Below are positions 12,094 to 47,133 of a stretch of 64,000 nucleotides of DNA, piece after piece; within the stretch, counting starts at the first letter, position 1, and each line of letters opens with the position of its first letter. The notes beneath the pieces were generated by a model that was not told where the DNA came from, made no database searches, and saw only the letters and a list, made by a program, of their open reading frames with translations. Source of the DNA: Cystobasidiomycetes sp. EMM_F5. Its lineage: Eukaryota. The DNA is taken from positions 372,001-436,000 of the forward strand of contig JBPGPT010000011.1 in the NCBI GenBank assembly GCA_051047955.1, written 5' to 3'. Made by a program: the position numbers and the translations under genes.

Positions 12094-13880
12094 TTTGTTA
12101 ACCGAGCAGGCTATGTAGGCTAGGTCCAGGCTGATGAAAGTGGAAACTGTGCAGTGGCGACCACTGAGTCCCGATAAACGCGTGCCGGACACGCGTAAAG
12201 TACGGACGTCACGCTGCCGGTTGTGCGCCAAACCAGATAGCTATCGCTCGAAGTCGGAAGGCAGACCGTAACGCCTGGGAAGCCCTGATGTCCGATCCAA
12301 TATGCTGCGCATCAGTCAGCTTCGCGCACAGTCTGCCTAGTGCTTGCGATGCGAATGTCGGCCTTTCCAGATGGCTGGTCGAATTCGATACCGCAGCATT
12401 CCGCCCTCGCATCGCCTGTAAGCACGGAACAAGGCCAGAGCTTAGATTAGTTGTCTCGGAACAGCTTGACGGTGAGTCAAAAAGCGGTAACGGCTTCGAC
12501 TCCAGTGCGCCGGCGCCTCCGTCTACTACAAAACAGTCTCCGTCGGCGTAAAAGCGTACACACAGTCACAGAGGAACGGTTACATGCACTGTTGACATAC
12601 ATTATTATGAGCCTGACGCTCTTTCTCGCAACGTTTTGATGCGGTCTCCATCACATTGCACGAGCGGAGATTTCTCAATCTCATGTCAGCGTAAAACTGA
12701 CTTTGGTCTCGACCTAAATTGCCTCATCACAACCATAAGCACGCACTTTCGTCACGTTACACGAGTTGCGATCAAGTGCACCCTTTCCGCCATCCAGGCC
12801 GGCCAAACCGATGTACCGTAGCGGGGCGTAGTTTCGTTTGGTCAGCCCTGCCGTGATGCTGACGCTGATGAGCGGTCTCGTCGCTGACGAGGCGTGAGAA
12901 AAGCTTAGAGTAAAAATCAAAATCAGAAGAAAATCGACGCCCGGAAATTGACTGGGTCGTAAAGGGGAAATGAGAGATGCAAGTCTTTCCCTTCTCTCCG
13001 CTGATTCGCGACGCACTGCAAACAGCGTGCAGCTACCGACTGCAGGCGTGCGTTATCAGGGTTCTCGTCGGCCGTTGGCACTCAAGACACTCCGCTCATC
13101 ATCGAGATCTAAATCAGCGGCACTGACGGTGAATATGTCGGACAAAAAGACCCTTTCCCTTTAAGGTTGCGAAGGCGCGCTGACGACTCATCGCACTTCG
13201 CAGCTGGAATTGTCGCCATTAGACAAGCTGGCACACCCCTATGTAATTGGAGAGTCGTGGTCAGAGTGATCTTTTGTGAGCTTCAGCTTCCTGTGAGGAC
13301 AGCACTCGCTGACAAATCCGTTCACCTGCGCTGATATCGCGACCTTCTCGGTCCAGACCTGGACTGAATTCCGTCCTTCGTCATTGCCGTACGACGATTT
13401 CTCGTCAGTATTTCTCCGCTCCCGTCTCTCACTATACAGCTCCGAGATATGGCAAACTTCTAGTCGCTCGAGAAGTAAATGCAAACTCCGTTGACAGAAA
13501 CCCTGACGAAGTTACCTTCTTAAAACCAAGCGTAAGTCTCTTCCGCTCACCAGTCCCGTTCGCCCGTTCGGAACAGCACGGAAAAAGGTCGTGCGTCGAT
13601 AGCCTGCCTCTTGCCAGCGACCATGACGTGCTCCGCATATCAGCCAAAGTTGCTGTGACGAGATTCACTAATTTCAATTATCTCTTTCCTTTTGCCCAGC
13701 ACCGTCAAAGCATTTCTTTTGCCAAGTCTCGCTCAACCCAAATCGCGGAGACAGACTTCATAACAGTTCTTTGAAGCGGTAAGGGACTGCTCGCGCATCT
13801 TAAGATTTTCTCTACCTACTCACTGGCTGTCTCCACTCACCAATATTTATTCCGATTTGAAGCCTTGTTTCTCCCACATC

Positions 13881-15316
13881 ATGGATCCTTTTGACCGCCC
13901 TTCCTCGAGGAGCGGCTCTCGACGATACTCTACGGCTGGGGCTAGTCTTCCACCTCTTCCACCGCTCGACCTGTCGTCAACCTCATCCTACCGTCTGCCA
14001 CCTCCTCGTACTACAGGCTTTTTAGCTTCGACGCAAGACCACTTTTCGCCATACATGGGCACTCGCAATCCAGCCCCATCTCCCTCGTACTCCTCATCCG
14101 GCTATGGCTTTGATAGCCCGTACGGCTCTACTCAACTACCGCCGTTGCGTAACATTCCTCGACCCTCTAGTCCTTTGCTCAGTCCAAGGCAGAGAACCTC
14201 GACTCTGGGCTCCAGTGGATCGTTGGGACACTCATATGGTAAGCCGAATTTGTGTGCGTACGCTCAATCCTTTGACTTATGTTTGCACCTCCCAGAACCA
14301 CCAAGCCTCGGTAGTCTGTCCCTTGGCTCGTCTTCGGGCCTATATGGAGAAAGTAGCCTGCACAGACCTTCCACTTCACGCTCTCGCTCAACCCACAGCG
14401 ATGTTTTCTCCTCGCTCGGTCCATCGGATCTTGGCATGTCTAGATCCTATTCCGATCCTGACGGTTTTAGCCTCGGGCCACAAACAGCATCTTTGGCTGG
14501 TCCTACTCGCACCCGTGGCAGCAGCAGTAGCTTTGCTGGTGGTACCCTGAGTGCTCTGTCGCCACCTCTTACAAGCACCGGGGGCAATTCCCACGCAAGC
14601 AGAGGTATCCGCAAATTCTCCAAACGTACCACTTTCTCTCCGGCACAGCTCAATGAGATGGAGAGTCTTTGGTCCCAGACAGAGTATCCCAGCATCGAGC
14701 AGATTGACGAGTGTGCCAAGAAAGGTGATCTTTCGCCAAAGCAAGTTCGCACCTGGTGAGTTTTCAATCGCTTTCCCGGCTCGTTGCGAAGCTGACTGCG
14801 TATATACACGGCAGGTTCGGCAATACTAGACAGGCCCGCTTGGCTGGAACTCGTCGAGAAGCCAGACAGTCCCCCTTTCCAGGTCGTAGCAGACGCGATA
14901 CGTTATCCGTCTCGACAGCACCCCTCTTTTCACGCTCCGGCAGTATGAGCTCGGGATCTTCGCTCGGTGGCGCATCTGGCAGTGCAAGCCTTCCACCCTT
15001 AGCTCCTCTCCCTCTACTGAGTACTACAAGTCGAGGCAGTGGTAGCAGCAGTGCCTTTCCAGCTCCACTATCCAGCGGTTATGGTAGTCTAGGCATGCCT
15101 TCCGTATTCGCAAGTGCACCTTCACGTAGCCGCCGAAATTCCACTGTCGGCTTCGCAATGCCAGGCAGTTCTCTATCCGGCATGCCTTCCTTCTCGGACT
15201 TCTCTTCAGGCTTGTCTTCGTCTGGCGGCTCTTCCGGCTTCGGTTCTAGCGGCTCGAGCCTGTATCCTTCTGGTCCCACCCGCTACTCTGGCTGGCCAGG
15301 CGACGAGATGCGGTGA
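13881..15316 (+). CDS. Homeodomain transcription factor with Ser/Pro-rich flanks
   Basis: KRTTFSPAQLNEMESLWSQTEYPSIEQIDECAKKGDLSPKQVRTW/FGNTRQAR; intron 14756-14814 splits the helix-3 Trp codon. Confidence 0.88.
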
Positions 15317-20887: not shown

Positions 20888-23593
20888 TTATGGGCTGGGA
20901 ACGTGCTGCAAAGCCCGCTCAACGTTGTCTGCTAAACGCCGAAGGCTTCCTGAGGGGCCGGGAACCAGCCCAACTGCCGCCATCTCGGTCAACACTTGCT
21001 GAGCGTGACGCATCTGACCTTTGCTGACTAGACCTTCCAGCAGAGCTTGCCAGACCCTTAAAGGCACACGTTCGGTGACGGACACCATCGAATCGGCGCC
21101 GTTGTCGACCAATTCGACCCCATTTACGGAGAAAGTCTGTCGCCGCCGCTTTAGGGCGCGATATGCGTTAAAGTAGCGCATTGCCTCGTCAAAATTATCG
21201 AAGGAGATGTGTGCGCACATTAGAGCGCTGTAAGCAATGCGATTCGATGGTACTTTGGCGTTCTGCATCTCGGTGTGAAGCTCCTCGGCTAGCTGGAGAT
21301 ACTGCGGGGTGTGGCGTAGTACGGCAAAATTTGCAAGGCCTTGTACAAGAGTCGTGTACGTAACCTCCGTTGGGCGGGCATGTGTAGGCTGCGGTGAGCG
21401 TGAGGTAGAATTCTGCATGTCGCGGAAGAGCTTAATTGCTGCGTGTAGTCCAGCAGGATCGCCCTCGTTGTGGCTCTTCTTTACAAGGAAGTCGATCATC
21501 GTTCCGAAAGTGACCACGTTGGGTTGAACACCAAACGATTCCATAATGGCGTGTACACTTTCGACTGCATTACTAGCACCAGCCCGCAGTAGGGCATCGA
21601 GAACAGTGGTAAAGGACACCACGTCTGGAACAAGCTTGAGCTCCTCAATGAGTTTGATTGTCGCTGACAGACCCTTCAAGTTGTGCGTTTTTGGTCTTGA
21701 ATAATACCTTAACAGGATATTGACGGTGTAGATATCCGGCGCGACGCCATATTCGCCCATTGATCTGAGGAACGTCATGGCAACTTCCGGCGAGTCGTTC
21801 CACAACAGGCCATTTATTACCACGTTAAAGAATCGCACCGGAAGCTGAGTCCGGTCGTTCTGATTGAACTTCCTGTCGGCCAATAGCGCTTGTGCGCATT
21901 GCAAACCCTCATCGTATCGGTTCGCGCGGAAGTAGGTGTTGACGAGGATAGACCAGCACACTGAATCCGGTTCTACACCAGTTTCTTGCATCTTATCAAA
22001 TGTCTGCCGAACTGCGTCTGGATTTCGCTGTTGCGACAGGCCATGGAGCAGACCAGTCCAAGTGATCACGGGAGGTTTCAGACCAAGAGACTGTAGAAAT
22101 TGGAAGACGGAGTCTGCATCCTGATTTGCACCATTATGGATGAAAGTATGTAGGAATTCGCCAGCTAGAGCTGGCGTGAAGTTTGCCGGCAATTTGGCGT
22201 TGGGCAGATCAATTGACACTCCTTCAGGTAAAGCGAAGTTGGAACTTGAATTCGTTTCATACCGGCTCCGGGAGGCTGTACTCGTATTATGGACTGTGGG
22301 GCTCAGCGCGTCGCTCTGCGCGAGCACGTTGGCCTCTCGCTCGGTCCAGTCTATGGTCATCCAGGCATCAGCAGGATTGAGTGGTGCCAAAGCTTCTCGA
22401 CAAAGTCGCCACATGTCATGAGCTGCTGCACTATTGCGCCGCTCTCTCCATCTCGCGCAAGCGGTCTTCAAACCTGCCTGTCCAGCTCGAAGCCAGATCT
22501 GCACGAGCCTCATTTGTGAACACCACCATGACAACCGTTCGCGCTGCTCATCGGATGATCCTTTTTGATTAGCAATCAATGGGAGTATGTACTCGTACGA
22601 CGCTTTGTCATGATACTTCTCCGGAACTGCAAAGTACGGCATGAGAGTCCTTATGAATTGCAGCAAAGCTCCTAGCGGGTGCGCTTGTCCCGCTTGCCCC
22701 GCTAGAAAGTGGGCTGCAAGAATAGACGCGAACAGGTCGTTTGATAGTTCAACGCGGTAGCGTGAAGCGTCCGTCCGAGGTCGCAGGCGGCCACACTCGG
22801 TAATGAACGCATTCCAGAACGAGAAGATGCGTTCGAGGGCGGAAGCCGATAGGTTGCTCCGCAAACTTTTCATTATCCATTGCGCGATTATGGAGTGGGA
22901 TTGCAATTCGACTTCGCGCATTGCGACGGGGACTAGTATAGACGATTTAATGTCATCCCAATCTCTTGCGAGAACGGCATCGTCGAGCTGCATCAGCAAT
23001 CTCACCATCGCTTCCGAGTGCTGAAAGTCGAGCTCTCTTTGCTTTTGTCCGTCGCGATGTAGCGCCGTCCATCCTGACAGAGCAGTGTGCCAGTCATCCT
23101 TAGCGAGACCGCGCAAGACTTTTCGAACATTGTCATCAGTCTCGGAGGAGGAGCCTGTTTTGTTGATATTCGAATCTTTCGGACTCAGCAGACCGCTCGA
23201 CGGTGGCTCGACCAGACTTGACGGACGCGGAAGTGACCCAAGGCGATGCAACTGCTGCAGAGCATCCGAGCCTCCGTAGTCAAAGCGAGGTAGCGGCACT
23301 CTTCTGCCTCGCTGCCCACCGGACGACGCCAATTTGGGTCTAGCTTGAGAATGCTTTGGGCTACGCTGCGAGCGGGCTTGGTGCGATACCTTGTTCGCAG
23401 GCTGAGACGAGCTCTCTGCAGGTCTGGTCTCGGAAGCTGCCGTTACATTTGACCGTCTTTCTGGCTGATAATGTATTGTCCTTGACCACGGTGGGCAGAG
23501 GAAATCGAGAAAGAGCGGGCCAGCATAGCTTATCGGAAGCAGAGACGGCGACAGACAAGCGCATCTTGCTTGCCGGAGCAGGTTTGGTCCCAT
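20888..23593 (-). CDS. Pentatricopeptide-repeat (PPR) protein, probably mitochondrial
   Basis: Intronless 901-aa ORF with tandem PPR motifs (PPVITWTGLLHGL, EPDSVCWSILVNTY, APDIYTVNILL, VPDVVSFTTVLDAL, QPNVVTFGTMID, PTEVTYTTLVQGL). Confidence 0.9.
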   Translation of the reverse strand: MGPNLLRQARCACLSPSLLPISYAGPLFLDFLCPPWSRTIHYQPERRSNVTAASETRPAESSSQPANKVSHQARSQRSPKHSQARPKLASSGGQRGRRVPLPRFDYGGSDALQQLHRLGSLPRPSSLVEPPSSGLLSPKDSNINKTGSSSETDDNVRKVLRGLAKDDWHTALSGWTALHRDGQKQRELDFQHSEAMVRLLMQLDDAVLARDWDDIKSSILVPVAMREVELQSHSIIAQWIMKSLRSNLSASALERIFSFWNAFITECGRLRPRTDASRYRVELSNDLFASILAAHFLAGQAGQAHPLGALLQFIRTLMPYFAVPEKYHDKASYEYILPLIANQKGSSDEQRERLSWWCSQMRLVQIWLRAGQAGLKTACARWRERRNSAAAHDMWRLCREALAPLNPADAWMTIDWTEREANVLAQSDALSPTVHNTSTASRSRYETNSSSNFALPEGVSIDLPNAKLPANFTPALAGEFLHTFIHNGANQDADSVFQFLQSLGLKPPVITWTGLLHGLSQQRNPDAVRQTFDKMQETGVEPDSVCWSILVNTYFRANRYDEGLQCAQALLADRKFNQNDRTQLPVRFFNVVINGLLWNDSPEVAMTFLRSMGEYGVAPDIYTVNILLRYYSRPKTHNLKGLSATIKLIEELKLVPDVVSFTTVLDALLRAGASNAVESVHAIMESFGVQPNVVTFGTMIDFLVKKSHNEGDPAGLHAAIKLFRDMQNSTSRSPQPTHARPTEVTYTTLVQGLANFAVLRHTPQYLQLAEELHTEMQNAKVPSNRIAYSALMCAHISFDNFDEAMRYFNAYRALKRRRQTFSVNGVELVDNGADSMVSVTERVPLRVWQALLEGLVSKGQMRHAQQVLTEMAAVGLVPGPSGSLRRLADNVERALQHVPSP

Positions 23594-28759: not shown

Positions 28760-29750
28760 CTCGACCGCGACGTTATGTGACTGCTGTTGGAGACTTTGAC
28801 GGTGATTTTGACAAAGTGACAGCTGATGAGGCCTAGCGTAGATTACGGATTTTGAGCTAGAAGGTGATGACAGTAAGCGTCGAGCGAGAGTGCAAAAGCA
28901 TTCGGAGTCGACATACCCTTCGCAATATGTGCTCCCGCAACACCAGTACCGTATTTGTCGAAAGTTGCGACCTTTAGACATACTTCGTCAACATGCGCGT
29001 CATCAGCAACCGCACCTAGGCAACTCGACCCCACCCGACGACCGAACCGTGAGAGGGTTCTGTTAAAGCTGCAGTTGTTGCGTCAAGAGGGTGCGAAGAA
29101 ATAGCGACTGAAGTGACGCCGCGACTGGTCGGTCAGGCTTGGGTGCAGCTCGAACACCCTCGACACGGCGTCACCCGCCATGGCCCTCGGCACCGTACAG
29201 CTCTCTTTCACCGTCGTCAGCGGCTCGTCAGCCATCACCTAATCACTTTGGTCAGAGGAATTCGGGGCGGCCCGACTTCGCAAGACGGTCAGCTGTGTGA
29301 GACATGGCCCGGGTCATTCAGCACGACAGAGGGGGACATCGTCTTAGAAAAAGGCAGCTGGTTGGAGGCTCAGTGCCGACGTGGTCACTACAGCACAGTA
29401 GTGGACAGACGGCTGACAAGTACGATAAACCATATATCGCGACTTTGGTTTGCGCAATCTGCGTTCATTCCGCCTATAATTTCTCCGGCTAACGTGACGC
29501 ACATGCACTGCGACTCGTGCATAACGACTGAATATTGACAGTCCGCATCCGTATCTCGTACATCCTTTGATTCTCGACTGTCGGCCGCCGCCCATACGTT
29601 CTCACTACCCTTAACACCCCTACTAAGGTTCAGCACCGCATAGGCGGTGAGACTCTGTACACGAGATGTCTCCAATGTATGCTATACATTTGCTAGCACT
29701 GTTTTTCGCTGTCTTCTCGAACCAATTTCGTTTTACGAAAGACACTCGAT

Positions 29751-39819: not shown

Positions 39820-40189
39820 TTCAGTGACAAAGTGTGCCTGATCGAGTGTTTACTGATTATGTAAGCGAGGAGTGACTCTGGACATGTCTCCTTCTTAGGA
39901 CTCCTTCCCCCTTCGCGCTGACTAAGAGCACTCTGCAGCCTGCTGACATGTGACTCTGACAGCATCGCCGTCGCTGCATCCGGCGATGTCGAGGCAGTGG
40001 AGGCAGTGGAGACTCAATCTATGTATCGCTGAAAGAGTGTGGGGGGAGTCTGCATACGTACACACTGACCAACACACACTCACACACCCTGCTAGATGCA
40101 GTGGACATCTCTGCAGCCGGATCTGCCAGGTGACTAACTGACACCACATCGATAGACGCGACAGACGCGACTCGACTCGCAGCTCGTGC

Positions 40190-40837
40190 ATGGGTCGCGA
40201 TTCATCACGCTCCTGCGGGCGACGCACAAACCTCGCAATCCTCTACGCCATCGACATTGCAGTCGTCGTCTTCATCTACCTCGCTACCGACAAGGCCTAC
40301 GGGACGGGCCACTTTAGCATCTTTAAAGGGACAATCACCCTCGAGGACTCATACAAGATTGTAGGCATATCCGGTGGTCCAATCGCAGGTCCGATCAACG
40401 AAAAGAGGGAGTTTTACCTCCTCCTCCACCGCATAGCAATGGCCGAACTGGCAGCCGTATCTACAATCCATACCATCGCTGAATTCGTAGAGTACTACCG
40501 ACGCAAAAAGTATGGAGACGCAAACTTTGAATCATCCGTATGGGCAAACGTCTTTGGCGTACTCTACTTTGTCGGATGGCTCTACGCGCTCGGCATATCC
40601 GCAGTAGGGTTTGTCATTTGCGCAATAGACTACTCGCACCAGTACCTCCACACCGACAATGACTTTAAAGGTGTGTCAGTGTCGCCAAAGGAGGGGGCTC
40701 AGTTTGCAGCAGTAGCGTGCGCACTCCTCCTCATCGGGGGGCTGTGGCGCATCATTGCCAGGGGAACTCACCAAAACGGAACGGCAAAGAGCGGTGCCCA
40801 TGAAGCAGACGAAAAGGCAGTCAGGATAAACATGTGA
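40190..40837 (+). CDS. Tetraspan membrane protein T1 (SUR7/PalI/claudin-like topology), intronless
   Basis: 215-aa ORF with four hydrophobic segments; aligns over its full length with 41615-42294; both end EKAVRINM. Confidence 0.8.
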   Translation: MGRDSSRSCGRRTNLAILYAIDIAVVVFIYLATDKAYGTGHFSIFKGTITLEDSYKIVGISGGPIAGPINEKREFYLLLHRIAMAELAAVSTIHTIAEFVEYYRRKKYGDANFESSVWANVFGVLYFVGWLYALGISAVGFVICAIDYSHQYLHTDNDFKGVSVSPKEGAQFAAVACALLLIGGLWRIIARGTHQNGTAKSGAHEADEKAVRINM

Positions 40838-41614: not shown

Positions 41615-42294
41615 ATGGGTCGCAGGGTCAACCTCGTCATCCTGTATGCTCTGGATATAATTGCCGTTTACTGCATTAAGCTGTCGACCGAAAGAGCTTA
41701 CGCTACTGGACATTGGTCCATCTTCAAGGGGACTATTACTCTTAATCAGACCTACAAGATTGTCGTAAGTGGCCTGTCAATCCATCCGAAGCATATCAAG
41801 TGATGACACCCCAAAATCAGGGCATCTCAGGCGGACCTATCGCTGGACCCATCAACGCCAAACGAACTGATCTGTTGCACAAGCACATGATTGCTATATT
41901 TGTGCTGGCTGGTGTTTCCTCGCTCCACACTCTCGTCGAGCTTGCCTACTACTACCGCGGGAAGAAGGTCGGAGACACGCACTATGACTGGTCATGGTGG
42001 CTCTCTGGAGTCGTTGGCGTGGCATACTTTATAGGCTGGACCTACGCCGTCGTCATATCTGGCTTTGGATTCATCATTTGCGCTCTCCAGTTTCTGCACG
42101 ATAAAGCGGGCGTAAATAACTCTTTTAGTGGATTATCAGTGTCGCCTCAGCAGGGAGCACAATTTGCAGCCATTGCATGCGCCCTCCTTCTCGTTAGTGG
42201 TGTGGGCAGAGTCGTCGCGACGTGCATCCGACAGACCGGGTCATCGAAAGCAGATCAGGACGTGGAGGAAAAGGCCGTGCGTATCAACATGTAG
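41615..42294 (+). CDS. Tetraspan membrane protein T2, tandem paralog of T1, one intron
   Basis: MGRRVNLVILYALDI...SIFKGTITLNQTYKIV/GISGGPIAGPIN...GAQFAAIACALLL...EKAVRINM; intron 41765-41820 (GTAAGT...CAG). Confidence 0.8.
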
Positions 42295-43065: not shown

Positions 43066-43871
43066 ATGCGTAGCTTTCCCAGCCTATGGAGCACTGTCAC
43101 CACCGCGACAGTCGTCTTCCTGGCCTGTTCGAGTGTCGCAGATGCCGTATGGGTCGATTTGCTAGGTCTGCGCATTCGAGCGTACTGACATACTTTTTGC
43201 TCTTGCAGCTTGATAACACCAACAACAACAACAACGAGATTCGCATGATCAGGATGCGCAGAGAATCCAATCAGGATGTACAAGAACGCTGGCTCTTGTT
43301 TGGAAATGGATCGCCAAGCCGCTCGTCAAGCGTAACAACCGCACAAACTGTCATTGGAAGTCCATCATCCGTCTCTACCGCTTCGACTGCCTCTTCGACG
43401 TCTTACTCGAATGACAACAACGATGACACTGAGAAGGCTGCTGCTTCTCGATACTGGGCTCGGATGAATGAGGCAGACCATGACGACCGCCGACATGGCG
43501 CTGACATGGACGGAGCGGACGACTCTGATACCGAAAAGGCCTGGGGTATGAGGTTCTGGAAGCGTGTCGTCTTTTTTGGCAAATCGCAAGGAGGACACAA
43601 GAGTGGAGAAGCGTCGCCGGAGCAGAATTTTGGTATGGAACGGTACTGGGCACGCGATAACGGCGATGACGAGGGCGCCACCGAAAAGAACTGGAGTCTC
43701 GGCAGATGGTGGGCAAGACGTAATGATGGTGACGCGCAAGCCGCCATCCCGCTACGCAAACGCATTCTGTTTGATAGCCCATCGAGTGATCAAGCACATG
43801 TCGACGAACCTGCTTCCAACAGCGGAGACGATCGCGATACCTCGCAGGCATGGGCTTATCGGGCGTGGTAG
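43066..43871 (+). CDS. Secreted Kex2-processed repeat peptide precursor 2 (about 247 aa, five RxW cores)
   Basis: Signal peptide MRSFPSLWSTVTTATVVFLACSSVADA; phase-0 intron 43147-43208; repeats DTEK-AAASRYW-AR, DTEK-AWGMRFW-KR, PEQ-NFGMERYW-AR, ATEK-NWSLGRWW-ARR, DTSQ-AWAYRAW*. Confidence 0.85.
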
Positions 43872-45652
43872 CTCTTCGACTGGGTAGTAGGCCAGCAATT
43901 TGGTGAGTGTAGCTGACACTGCTTGTAAGGTTATTTCACAACGCTGACGTGATGGATCAAGCAACAGACATATGCAGCTCTTCAGCGTATTGCAGTCGAC
44001 CGACTGAATGCGGTGCCTTTGCAGCAGGTCTGCAACGAACGCTGGCTGCATCTTGTCGATTTCCACAGGTCCATTCTGGACAATTCATGTTTGGCGTTAT
44101 CTGGCAAAGGTTTGCAAAGGGGAAGTGAAAGGGTCCCAGTGAGCAATGGACAATTTATCAATCTATTTCGTATTCAATGTTGGGTGCAGCATTGCTGTCA
44201 ACTTTCCCCGGATCATATGCTCGAGCCATACGTGACCAAGCTCTTTTGCGTCAGAAAAGTAACATTGATTGCTGCTATGGTGCTTAGTGTGCGATTGATA
44301 GGTTCATGAGAATACTAGACTTCGAGGTTATGCGACGCGTTGTTTACAAAAAATGTCAGGCACTACAGTCTGCGTCTGAAGAGCATTGCTGCGCTTTGCG
44401 GATCCCGCACACAGACTGCGAATATGCTGTGCTGAAGCGACACGGTGCACCTTCCTGTAGCATGGTGTGCTCTCTCCGACATTCTGCTTGGGCGTGCTCG
44501 TCCTTCCATGCTCTGCTCAGCTGAGGTGAGATGGCAATGTTATCAGCAGCCCGGAGCCAGTCGTCATATGCCTGCCTGCTTCACATCGTCATCGCAGTCG
44601 TCACTATACGCATCGATGAGATATCGAAGCTCGCGCCAATAAACCAAGCTGGGGTCAGTAGTCACTGTCGCGCGATTCCGGACCCGAATCGAGGCTACCA
44701 CGAAACGGCGTCGCGATAAGTGTGACCAGCGATTTGGTGACACGTACACCGTAGCTCTTGGCTAGCATTCGTGGAGTACGTCAGTGGTGCAATGTGCAAG
44801 ATACGTGTGCGAGCGAAGTCGTACGGCCTCGCGTGCATAATAGCTGCCTGGCCAATTGCAAGGCCTGCCAACGACAAGGGAATAGCAACTCAAGAGGGAC
44901 AAGAAGAAGTCGTATTTCCGCGTACTTTATATTTCAGCAAGCACCCATCAGGAAACAAACTATCTTATTGCTCAGCGGGGTAGACTTCGGACCCAAAAAG
45001 GCGGAATACGAGCATGAATACCAATTGCAATACAGAATTTGAACGGCAGACTGATTCTAACGCGAGGCATTGACGTACAGAGTGTAAATGGTGTTACACT
45101 GCCAGTATTCGAAGCCATGATTGTGTCCACCGCCTCGCACACCTGCACGTTTCGCGCCCTTCGACTTGGCAGGCTGCTACTCGCGGTGAGGCTGCTGACT
45201 AGCTGTCGGCATAAGCTCTGGGCTGCTGACACCGCAAGAGATAAGGAAGCAGAGGGTCGCTGATATCGGCCAAAAGAGGAAAGCTACAGCTGCTTGGGAC
45301 CGCCACGCGGACTCAAAACATGTCTGTGCCTGGGAATAGATGGCACCAAAATGGAAACTATACAGGACAAGCCCTGGCGCGTAGACGGTGCACAGAGGCC
45401 CGCGAGCATTTATCTCACTCGTACAGAGTCAGGGATTGGAGGCCAGGACTTCACACGCTCAACTTTGCTGTGCTCCCGAGCAAAAAAATGTGCAAATCTG
45501 GCGGCTAGCCCGCATGAAATTCTGCCGCTGGCGCAACAGCCAACCTGCAGGCGTTGGGGCAGTGGGCGATAGTTCTTGCTTTCATTCTCTTACCACCTCG
45601 CTGTACACTCTACATCTACTGGACGCTGTAGGCACCTGACAAACCTGCCAAC

Positions 45653-46232
45653 ATGCGCTTCCTCATCACACTCGTTGCAATCTCTGCGTTCATCGCTTCG
45701 GCCAGTGCGACGTTCTTCCCGCCTTCACCGCCGCAATCAACGTGAGTGCAACCAGCTGCAAGTCGCATGATTGTTCCGCCATGGCTGACAGTAATTACCC
45801 ATTGCAGCACCACGAGCAAGTTCGTTTGCCCAGATGATAGGCGTTCCAACGTGGCCGACCGTGCCCCCATTGACTCTCTAAACGTCGTCGGAGTCAAGCT
45901 CATCTGCACATATAAGGGCTTCACTAGCTTTGTTATCCCACGAACGTGCACGTACGAGATTTTGCTAGACGGTAGCCTCATCCTGGATACAGATCAAGGT
46001 GAGGCGAGATTCCAAGCGTTTCTTGCACTTTATTTGTTTCTGACTTGTTAAATTCTTCAATGCAGGCCAATGTGCCCTCAAGGCCGACACTGTCGTCTCG
46101 CAGCGCCGCAAGAGAGCTGCTCGTCGTGCTGCCGAGCATGCTGCCCGCGCACCCAAGGCCTCCATCGACAGCTACACAGACAACATGAGGGCGATGGCAC
46201 GTGTCAAGATGGCCCGCAAAGCGAGGGCGTAG
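45653..46232 (+). CDS. Small secreted Cys-rich protein with RRKR site and basic C-terminal tail
   Basis: MRFLITLVAISAFIASASA signal; FVCPDD..LICTY..TCTY..LILDTDQ/GQCALKA..QRRKRAARR..MARKARA*; introns 45742-45807 and 45999-46065. Confidence 0.78.
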
Positions 46233-47133
46233 ATGGAGGTGGACAATTTCGGGGCAAGTGATATCCTCTTTATAGTGCTTCTGTCGCTCTTCGGTATTCT
46301 CGAAGATTGGTGTTAATGGCCTTTTTACGTACAAACTTATAGATGATGTGGTTTAGGCTCATCCCCTGCTTGGATATAATGCGGTGTTATCAGATAGACA
46401 GAATAGTCGTTAATGAATCTTAGGGGTCTATGAGCGATAGTCTGCGGGCTTTTCGACTTCATCTGCCAGTATAAGATGCTGCCGTCCGTCCGGACTCCAA
46501 GAGCACACCCCCCGACCAACACACAGCACTGCGCTGATGTCGAATAGAGCGTAGCTACAGTCCGTCGCCTTTCATTTTGTCCTTGCAAATGTCCTTGATC
46601 TCGAGGCCAAAGGAAGCCTTGATTGAGAATGCAAAGTTGGGGGATTTTGCTTGAAATAACGGGGACAGACGCGCAACTTATGAGCAGCAAAGGCGACAGT
46701 ATGCAATGCTGAGAGCTGCAACATAATCGATGCCCGCACAGCAAACACCAGCCTGGTGCTCAGCATAAACCCCCGGCAGCCGCAACGCCAGGACCAGCAA
46801 TCACTACCGAGGCCGTCGCAGTCTGAGCGCAGAAACGCAACTGGGCAATCGCAGTCCAGCAGAGTCCGCGCAGAATACCATTAGGGCGTATAGGGCATTC
46901 ACTATCAACACTGGCCATTACGGTCCAGGTCGCAGCATTGCAGCTCGAGAAAGAGGGCCAAAAGGCACGTCCAGACGGGCACCTCCGACGAGCAAAGACT
47001 TGGGCCTTTCCAGCCAACAAAACACGGTATACGTGCTGCACTTTCGACAAGTACTCGCACTGGTGTATCTGCGTCGGTCATTGCATCCAGTCGCGCTTCC
47101 TGCAAGCCGCGAATCTCTCGATAATCCGCCAGC

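Follow-up and report, generated by a model that had tools for sequence, protein, structure and literature searches.

In a 64,000-nucleotide stretch of contig JBPGPT010000011.1 from Cystobasidiomycetes sp. EMM_F5 (positions 372,001 to 436,000 of the forward strand; hereafter the window, with positions counted from its first letter), we analyzed a plus-strand gene that spans exactly positions 43066-43871 (ATG 43066-43068, TAG 43869-43871) and is predicted to encode a protein of 247 amino acids (aa) with five diverged units ending in Arg-x-Trp. We read it, with a probability of roughly 0.45, as a lineage-restricted fungal gene for a secreted, cysteine-free, disordered polyprotein, that is, an atypical stand-alone member of the Kex2-processed repeat proteins (KEPs) that would be processed at Lys-Arg or Arg-Arg (KR/RR) sites and perhaps also at Ala-Arg (A-R). 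That the gene is real and its product secreted is, taken by itself, highly probable. The product is very probably not the precursor to a peptide made on the ribosome and modified after translation (RiPP). Of the two novelty claims that can be made for the gene, a new KEP-type precursor is plausible and ordinary for its class, while a new RiPP family is unsupported.

The five cores and their flanks, as described in a first-pass annotation of this DNA, were confirmed at exact coordinates (Table 1). The units are 15-17 aa long, cover about 80 of the 247 residues and follow the consensus x-D-x-x-D-T-E-K-A-W-x-x-R-x-W-A-R, with the Arg and the last Trp invariant; the other four are 38-47% identical to unit 1. 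Nine of the ten Trp residues of exon 2 lie inside the cores. In 100,000 shuffles of the mature sequence, at least five R-x-W were reached 67 times, and five R-x-W each followed by [AK]R or the end of the protein never occurred; the full unit pattern was likewise found in none of the 100,000. The second, interleaved motif of the first-pass annotation, referred to here as the hydrophobic head, is also present, in two strict copies (ER-WLLFG and KR-VVFFG) and a shorter variant (KR-ILFD), and one or more strict copies appeared in a single shuffle of the 100,000. The two motifs alternate in such a way that long and short units follow each other (long, short, long, short, long), the long ones running from a basic residue and a hydrophobic head through a spacer to D-T-E-K and the core, and the short ones consisting of an acidic spacer and the core only. 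The described contrast between acidic spacers and cationic, Trp-rich ends held as well, with net charges of -7, -4, and -5 for the spacers versus +1 to +3 for the cores with their basic tails.

Differing synonymous codons encode the conserved Asp, Thr, and Glu as well as the invariant Arg (CGA, AGG, CGG, AGA, and CGG). The units are therefore old duplicates preserved at the level of the protein sequence, and this pattern is the only evidence of selection here. A 35-aa linker rich in Ser and Thr, with one N-x-S sequon, separates the first hydrophobic head from unit 1 and is likely a glycosylated spacer. A single-sequence AlphaFold2 model of exon 2 gave a mean predicted local distance difference test score (pLDDT) of 41.3 and a predicted template modeling score of 0.20, with 190 of the 220 residues below a pLDDT of 50, which fits disorder, with the caveat that models built from one sequence are often poor. 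Since no confident fold was predicted, the KR/RR sites should be accessible. The N-terminal piece ahead of the first site also holds an AAC microsatellite of seven copies (43215-43235), which encodes a run of Asn.

Table 1. Parts of the repeat gene and neighboring features (positions in the window; aa, amino acids; nt, nucleotides; kb, kilobases)
Feature	Positions	Strand	Details
Exon 1	43066-43146	+	27 aa, MRSFPSLWSTVTTATVVFLACSSVADA; ATG is the first of its frame; start context GCAGCCATGC, purine at -3
Intron (predicted)	43147-43208	+	62 nt, phase 0; starts GTATGG, TACTGAC 17 nt before the end, pyrimidine tract, ends TTGCAG
Exon 2	43209-43871	+	220 aa and TAG; cysteine-free; 172 of 220 residues of disorder-promoting types
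N-terminal piece	43209-43262	+	LDNTNNNNNEIRMIRMRR; ends in the first RR site (43257-43262)
Hydrophobic head 1	43284-43304	+	ER-WLLFG
Ser/Thr-rich linker	43305-43409	+	35 aa, NGS sequon
Unit 1	43413-43463	+	DNNDDTEK-AAASRYW-AR; core 43437-43457
RR site in the unit 1/unit 2 spacer	43488-43493	+	inside an 11-nt tandem duplication, 43488-43509 (CGCCGACATGG twice)
Unit 2	43515-43565	+	ADDSDTEK-AWGMRFW-KR; core 43539-43559, KR 43560-43565
Hydrophobic head 2	43560-43580	+	KR-VVFFG
Unit 3	43605-43655	+	GEASPEQ-NFGMERYW-AR; core 43626-43649
Unit 4	43668-43721	+	DEGATEK-NWSLGRWW-ARR; core 43689-43712 with NWS sequon; RR 43716-43721
Hydrophobic head 3	43758-43775	+	(R)KR-ILFD; KR 43758-43763
Unit 5	43824-43868	+	GDDRDTSQ-AWAYRAW, forming the protein's C-terminal end; core 43848-43868, then TAG
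Spc7/Knl1	34.9-38.9 kb	-	conserved gene
Two tandem paralogous small multi-pass membrane proteins	40142-40837, 41746-42294	+	just upstream of the repeat gene, same strand
Three consecutive open reading frames	45616-46759	-	124-140 codons, differing frames; downstream of the repeat gene; no Pfam match
WAC-DDT-WSD chromatin-remodelling gene	47.4-50.8 kb		
Amino-acid transporter			neighbor of the repeat gene

The gene model comprises two exons joined across a single 62-nt GT..AG intron predicted from the sequence; read unspliced, the frame meets a stop at 43186-43188, 40 codons past the first ATG. In its size class and signals, the predicted intron resembles those of conserved genes in the window, namely the 55-nt GTAAGT..TAG intron (6016-5962, minus strand) that joins two Pfam-supported open reading frames (ORFs) of the TAP42 gene in frame, and the GTACGT and GTAAGC junctions of the Spc7/Knl1 gene. 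Coding potential was scored with a codon-usage log-odds table trained on nine other long ORFs of the window, with two further neighboring ORFs kept outside the training set. The exon 2 frame scored 0.213 per codon, against -0.331 to 0.001 for the five other frames of the same DNA and 0.065-0.244 for the true frames of the 11 control ORFs (the nine trained on and the two untrained). Exon 1 alone scored 0.012 over 27 codons, a length too short for judgement.

These scores bear on the alternative that the locus is non-functional, being either a chance or decaying ORF or the shadow of a true gene on the opposite strand. Such a reading could draw on the lack of any homologue or Pfam family, on a sole database record in which the ORF was called in prokaryote style on the same contig, and on the three reverse frames, all of which stay free of stops for 128-186 codons across this DNA (43365-43935, minus strand). 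We consider it very unlikely. The codon score of exon 2 is on a level with those of the best real genes of the window, and the five other frames lie near zero or below; because the codon scores of the reverse-strand ORFs are low (about zero or negative), these ORFs are best seen as by-products of composition, the coding strand being rich in Asp, Gly, Ala, and Arg. The ORF is also 265 codons long, the fivefold motif has been retained despite synonymous codon changes, and the ATG, signal-like peptide and intron make up a coherent model. Finally, sequencing run X1 from a near-identical strain covers part of the gene in four 151-nt contig pieces at depth 3-4 (0.32 of the words), with gaps at 43332-43453 and everywhere before 43149. 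In the covered coding parts it differs from the reference by three substitutions, two of them synonymous and one a Thr-to-Asn change that extends the Asn run. Its only indel, a 1-base deletion at 43194, falls in the intron together with a substitution at 43201, at a depth of only 4. The confinement of the indel to the intron fits the gene model and may be real, or may be a sequencing error at this depth.

The secreted-type N-terminus claimed in the first-pass annotation is signal-peptide-like under a hand rule based on hydrophobicity and charge, which points to secretion. The six most hydrophobic nine-residue windows of the whole protein all fall within residues 11-25 (Kyte-Doolittle maximum 2.43). 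An Arg at position 2 is followed by an uncharged stretch over residues 3-24, and A-D-A occupies positions -3 to -1 of the end of exon 1. By the same hand rule, the 247-aa protein has no second hydrophobic stretch and no transmembrane segment.

We then related the protein to what is used to recognize KEPs. The screen of Le Marquer 2019 selected proteins that have a signal peptide and no transmembrane segment, fall into four or more KR/RR fragments with a FIMO motif common to three or more of these, and consist of repeats over at least 15% of their length (PMC6339444). Here, a signal-like N-terminus without a transmembrane segment is joined by six KR/RR fragments, five motifs with KR/RR between most of them, and the repeat coverage given above, in excess of 15%. 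The screen of Umemura 2020 called for at least three tandem repeats of at least 8 aa between KR, KK, RK or RR sites, with a score above 0.6 and none longer than 100 aa (PMC7329392). The stretches between sites in the present protein (16, 75, 22, 50, 11, and 36 aa) lie within these size limits, and the divergence of the units makes it doubtful that the positional repeat score would pass. The same survey listed 7878 KEPs, 2560 of them stand-alone without homologues, as is the gene studied here, and found a DUF3328 neighbor for only 6.1% of basidiomycete KEPs (PMC7329392). It follows from these two figures that a KEP-like orphan lacking tailoring genes is nothing unusual.

The cleavage-site map shows where the likeness to KEPs ends. 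Counted over the full protein, the [KR]R sites fall on residues 44, 121, 145, 197, and 211; cutting at these five would divide the mature part into six fragments of 18, 77, 24, 52, 14, and 35 aa, four of which carry a unit (1, 1, 2, and 1 units, as counted by a regular expression over units that are 38-47% identical). Several features of this map and of the repeats weigh against a KEP of regular build. The number of [KR]R sites is not significantly enriched (5 versus a shuffle mean of 2.59, P=0.096). A dibasic site stands directly after only two of the four internal units (W-KR in unit 2 and WA-RR in unit 4), the conserved flank on the C side being A-R (units 1 and 3), which is not dibasic although the first-pass annotation had listed it among the basic sites, and the gap between units 3 and 4 holds no dibasic site at all. 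The residues that follow the sites (ES, HG, VV, ND, and IL) carry no STE13-type X-A/X-P signature, and the divergence of the units is unlike the near-identical repeats of typical KEPs, as are the long acidic spacers. On the N side, the cores are preceded by K, K, Q, K, and Q (codons AAG or CAG), and none of the five by a dibasic site.

The KEP layout proposed for the gene thus stood in part: the five KR/RR sites and the counts of the looser screen of Le Marquer 2019 are there, and the cores are not bounded by conserved sites. In other words, the protein has the counts used in KEP screens, not the regular core-site-core anatomy. Because the core flanks are not conserved dibasic sites, Kex2 alone would yield acidic peptides of tens of residues (22-77 aa) rather than five 7-8-mers, the release of which would need extra cuts after a single Arg and after Lys or Gln.

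Kex2 cuts secretory precursors at dibasic sites and Kex1 trims the basic residues left behind. Under the reading as an atypical KEP, the signal peptide would be removed after A-D-A, and a Kex2-type convertase would then cut the exposed KR/RR sites in the late secretory pathway, with Kex1 trimming the basic ends. The expected products would be a short N-terminal piece, a piece of 11-14 aa, and four acidic peptides with lengths near 22, 35, 50, and 75 aa. All four would bear D-T-E-K-A-W-x-x-R-x-W, once or twice, at the C-terminal end or close to it, and two of them would begin with a hydrophobic head (VVFFG and ILFD). Less efficient cuts after the single Arg of the A-R flank could trim these further to Trp-terminated peptides. 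Outside the cell, the products would serve either as signals or as peptides active on surfaces or membranes. If processing does run this way, the gene would be a further lineage-specific secreted precursor in a very large and diverse class whose functions are mostly uncharted. Its unusual points, namely the conserved A-R flank in place of KR, the acidic D-T-E-K ahead of the core, and the alternation of long and short units with hydrophobic heads, could show how far non-canonical (monobasic) processing extends in fungal peptide repertoires. The present evidence opens no new question, and the protein is a reasonable target for peptidomics.

The main rival of this model is that the protein acts intact, or nearly so, as a disordered repeat protein that is O-glycosylated and either secreted or associated with the wall. 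In it, the Trp/Arg units would serve as short linear motifs that bind to a polysaccharide, to a membrane, or to a host or partner protein, and the dibasic sites would be incidental. The whole unit of 16-17 residues is conserved, including its acidic D-x-x-D-T-E half and not the core alone; the flanks show no conserved cleavage site, being K/K/Q/K/Q ahead of the cores and mostly A-R behind them; and the dibasic count lies within chance. The Ser/Thr-rich linker, the two N-x-S sequons and the lack of a predicted fold would suit such a protein too, and by analogy repetitive secreted effectors and wall proteins exist in other fungi, Rsp3 reportedly being an example of such an effector. Against this, a Kex2-type enzyme, if present, would likely cut the five KR/RR sites that such a disordered secretory protein exposes, and two KR stand exactly before hydrophobic heads and one exactly behind a core, which suggests positioning over accident. 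On balance we regard an intact mode of action as rather unlikely.

Returning to the reading as a processed precursor, peptides of the kind expected from full trimming have been described. Agaricomycete peptidomics detected by mass spectrometry the linear KEP peptides QMRPPSW, QYKAPSW, and (M/L)SGVAADW, which are 7-8-mers with a C-terminal Trp, and also observed products of cleavage after a single Arg (PMC9769878). Because such Trp-ended 7-8-mers are already known from basidiomycete KEPs, the view that the cores represent an undescribed kind of peptide does not hold (PMC9769878). Similar in layout are the alpha-pheromone-like KEPs (Coprinopsis KEP 490115 and those of Pleurotus and Lentinula), which share with the present gene cores of 7-8 residues that end in Trp and are followed by a basic site, but have a regular KR/RR site and STE13-type X-A/X-P residues before each core, neither of which is found here (PMC9769878). 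They show no sequence relation to the repeat gene, and the parts of PMC9769878 used here mention neither an R-x-W signature nor a DTEK sequence before the core.

For the larger predicted products, Rep1 of Ustilago maydis may serve as a functional analogue. It is secreted and cut by Kex2 into peptides of about 37 aa that act at the hyphal surface (PMC6339444). The predicted 35-aa and 50-aa products would be of similar size, with a hydrophobic head and an aromatic tail, whereas the repeats of Rep1 are similar to one another and each is bounded by Kex2 sites. No homology to Rep1 was detected by HMMER over 1.84 billion representatives or by a word-based search.

The non-dibasic flanks of the cores also admit another kind of precursor. 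In Cryptococcus neoformans, the quorum-sensing peptide Qsp1 has 11 residues, with N-F-G at its start and Y-P-W at its end. It is released from a secreted pro-peptide by the cell-wall serine protease Pqp1 and imported by Opt1 (PMC7537855; PMC6571750). The repeat gene could encode a polyvalent counterpart of this single-core system: a multi-core precursor of autocrine or quorum peptides of 7-11 residues ending in Trp, cut after the Arg of A-R and after the K or Q on the N side by an extracellular or wall-bound protease other than Kex2, and sensed or imported in the manner of Qsp1. Both would involve short secreted basidiomycete peptides and a Trp at the very C-terminus of the precursor, here supplied by unit 5; flanks that are not dibasic suit a protease other than Kex2; and unit 3 begins with N-F-G, as Qsp1 does, and ends in Y-W, a likeness too short for statistics. 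We nevertheless hold this to be improbable. The likeness amounts to three residues and a terminal Trp in one of the five units and was found post hoc, the P1 residue on the N side varies between K and Q, no significant sequence relation to anything was found by HMMER or among PDB sequences, and the Qsp1 precursor is small and has a single core, unlike the five diverged cores in 247 aa of the repeat protein. If true, it would be a new kind of fungal multi-copy signaling precursor in a poorly sampled lineage.

The first-pass annotation had further likened the layout to dikaritin-type RiPP precursors (as for ustiloxin, phomopsin, and asperipin-like peptides), the cores of which are macrocyclized by DUF3328/UstYa proteins. 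A signal peptide and repeated short cores are common to both, and Tyr, needed for DUF3328-dependent cyclization in known cases (PMC7329392), occurs in three of the five cores (AAASRYW, NFGMERYW, and AWAYRAW). It is missing from the other two (AWGMRFW and NWSLGRWW), and the cores are not flanked on both sides by dibasic sites, that is, not bracketed by Kex2 sites as in dikaritin precursors, and do not form conserved motifs of the tetrapeptide type. The 2020 survey put DUF3328-type genes at a mean distance of 3.09 genes from the KEP gene (PMC7329392). We ran Pfam scans over 148 ORFs of at least 90 aa in the 26-62 kb part of the window, 36 of the 56 ORFs of at least 110 aa in the rest of it, and 10 neighboring ORFs. 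Of the 20 ORFs outside the scan of 36, five were covered among seven long ORFs scanned, and 15, which overlap identified genes in other frames, were left unscanned. None of the scanned ORFs has a domain of the DUF3328/UstYa, tyrosinase, methyltransferase, P450 or protease kind; such scans would overlook exons of fewer than 90 aa. The dikaritin or RiPP reading is disfavored because neither DUF3328 nor a tailoring gene is present among the scanned ORFs, and we consider it extremely unlikely. The neighbors are instead housekeeping genes (Spc7/Knl1, WAC-DDT-WSD, and the amino-acid transporter) and two orphan membrane proteins.

Searches for relatives of the repeat protein returned little beyond the protein itself. 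Exon 2 matched no Pfam family at E up to 10 and no PDB sequence at E up to 1, and ESM Atlas gave no usable match. The word-based search over 5.8 billion clusters retrieved only P0003, an unspliced ORF called in prokaryote style on the same contig, given there as 288,731 bases. The HMMER search gave a single match besides the protein itself (P0004, E=7.7e-5), which we rejected as spurious: BLASTP aligned 47 residues at 34% identity, the match is multiplied by the ten repeats of P0004, and no Trp is aligned. A scan of JGI metagenome proteins matched 578 stretches by pattern and confirmed none of them. The only metagenome locus found with a degenerate DNA pattern for D-T-E-K-A-W-x-x-R-x-W (L001, 1303-1335, plus strand) was dismissed as a chance match, lying out of frame over an integrase-like ORF on a 4621-base contig. 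Within the window, the unit is confined to the repeat gene, and loose matches to the core pattern at 28966 and 21900 (both minus strand) fall in unrelated frames. As a calibration, we looked at other genes of the window. A neighboring membrane protein matched only its paralogue in the window and one protein of 44% identity, and a 901-aa PPR-repeat protein (20888-23593, minus strand) matched only itself at E<=1e-10 in the 5.8 billion clusters. Because these genes too are nearly without relatives, the lineage being barely represented in databases, we did not count the orphan status of the repeat gene as evidence.

The surroundings of the gene are an ordinary chromosomal neighborhood and not a biosynthetic cluster. 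The tandem membrane paralogues are 49% identical; both carry the motif GISGGPIAGPIN and end in EKAVRINM. In Pfam, nothing rises above threshold for them (DMT_YdcZ reaches 20.2 bits versus a cut-off of 24), and their single relative outside the window, P0006, is 44-46% identical and lies on a 1103-base contig. A functional link between these paralogues and the repeat gene is possible. Downstream, the three consecutive minus-strand ORFs may be an orphan gene split by introns. Scanning the window against Rfam and for tRNA genes yielded no match, and an ESM Atlas search with the TAP42 ORF led only to clusters of kingdom-wide spread. Farther away, an ORF at 13764-14759 (plus strand) ends in a homeodomain (Pfam E=9.3e-10) that is cut at the end of the ORF, presumably by an intron.

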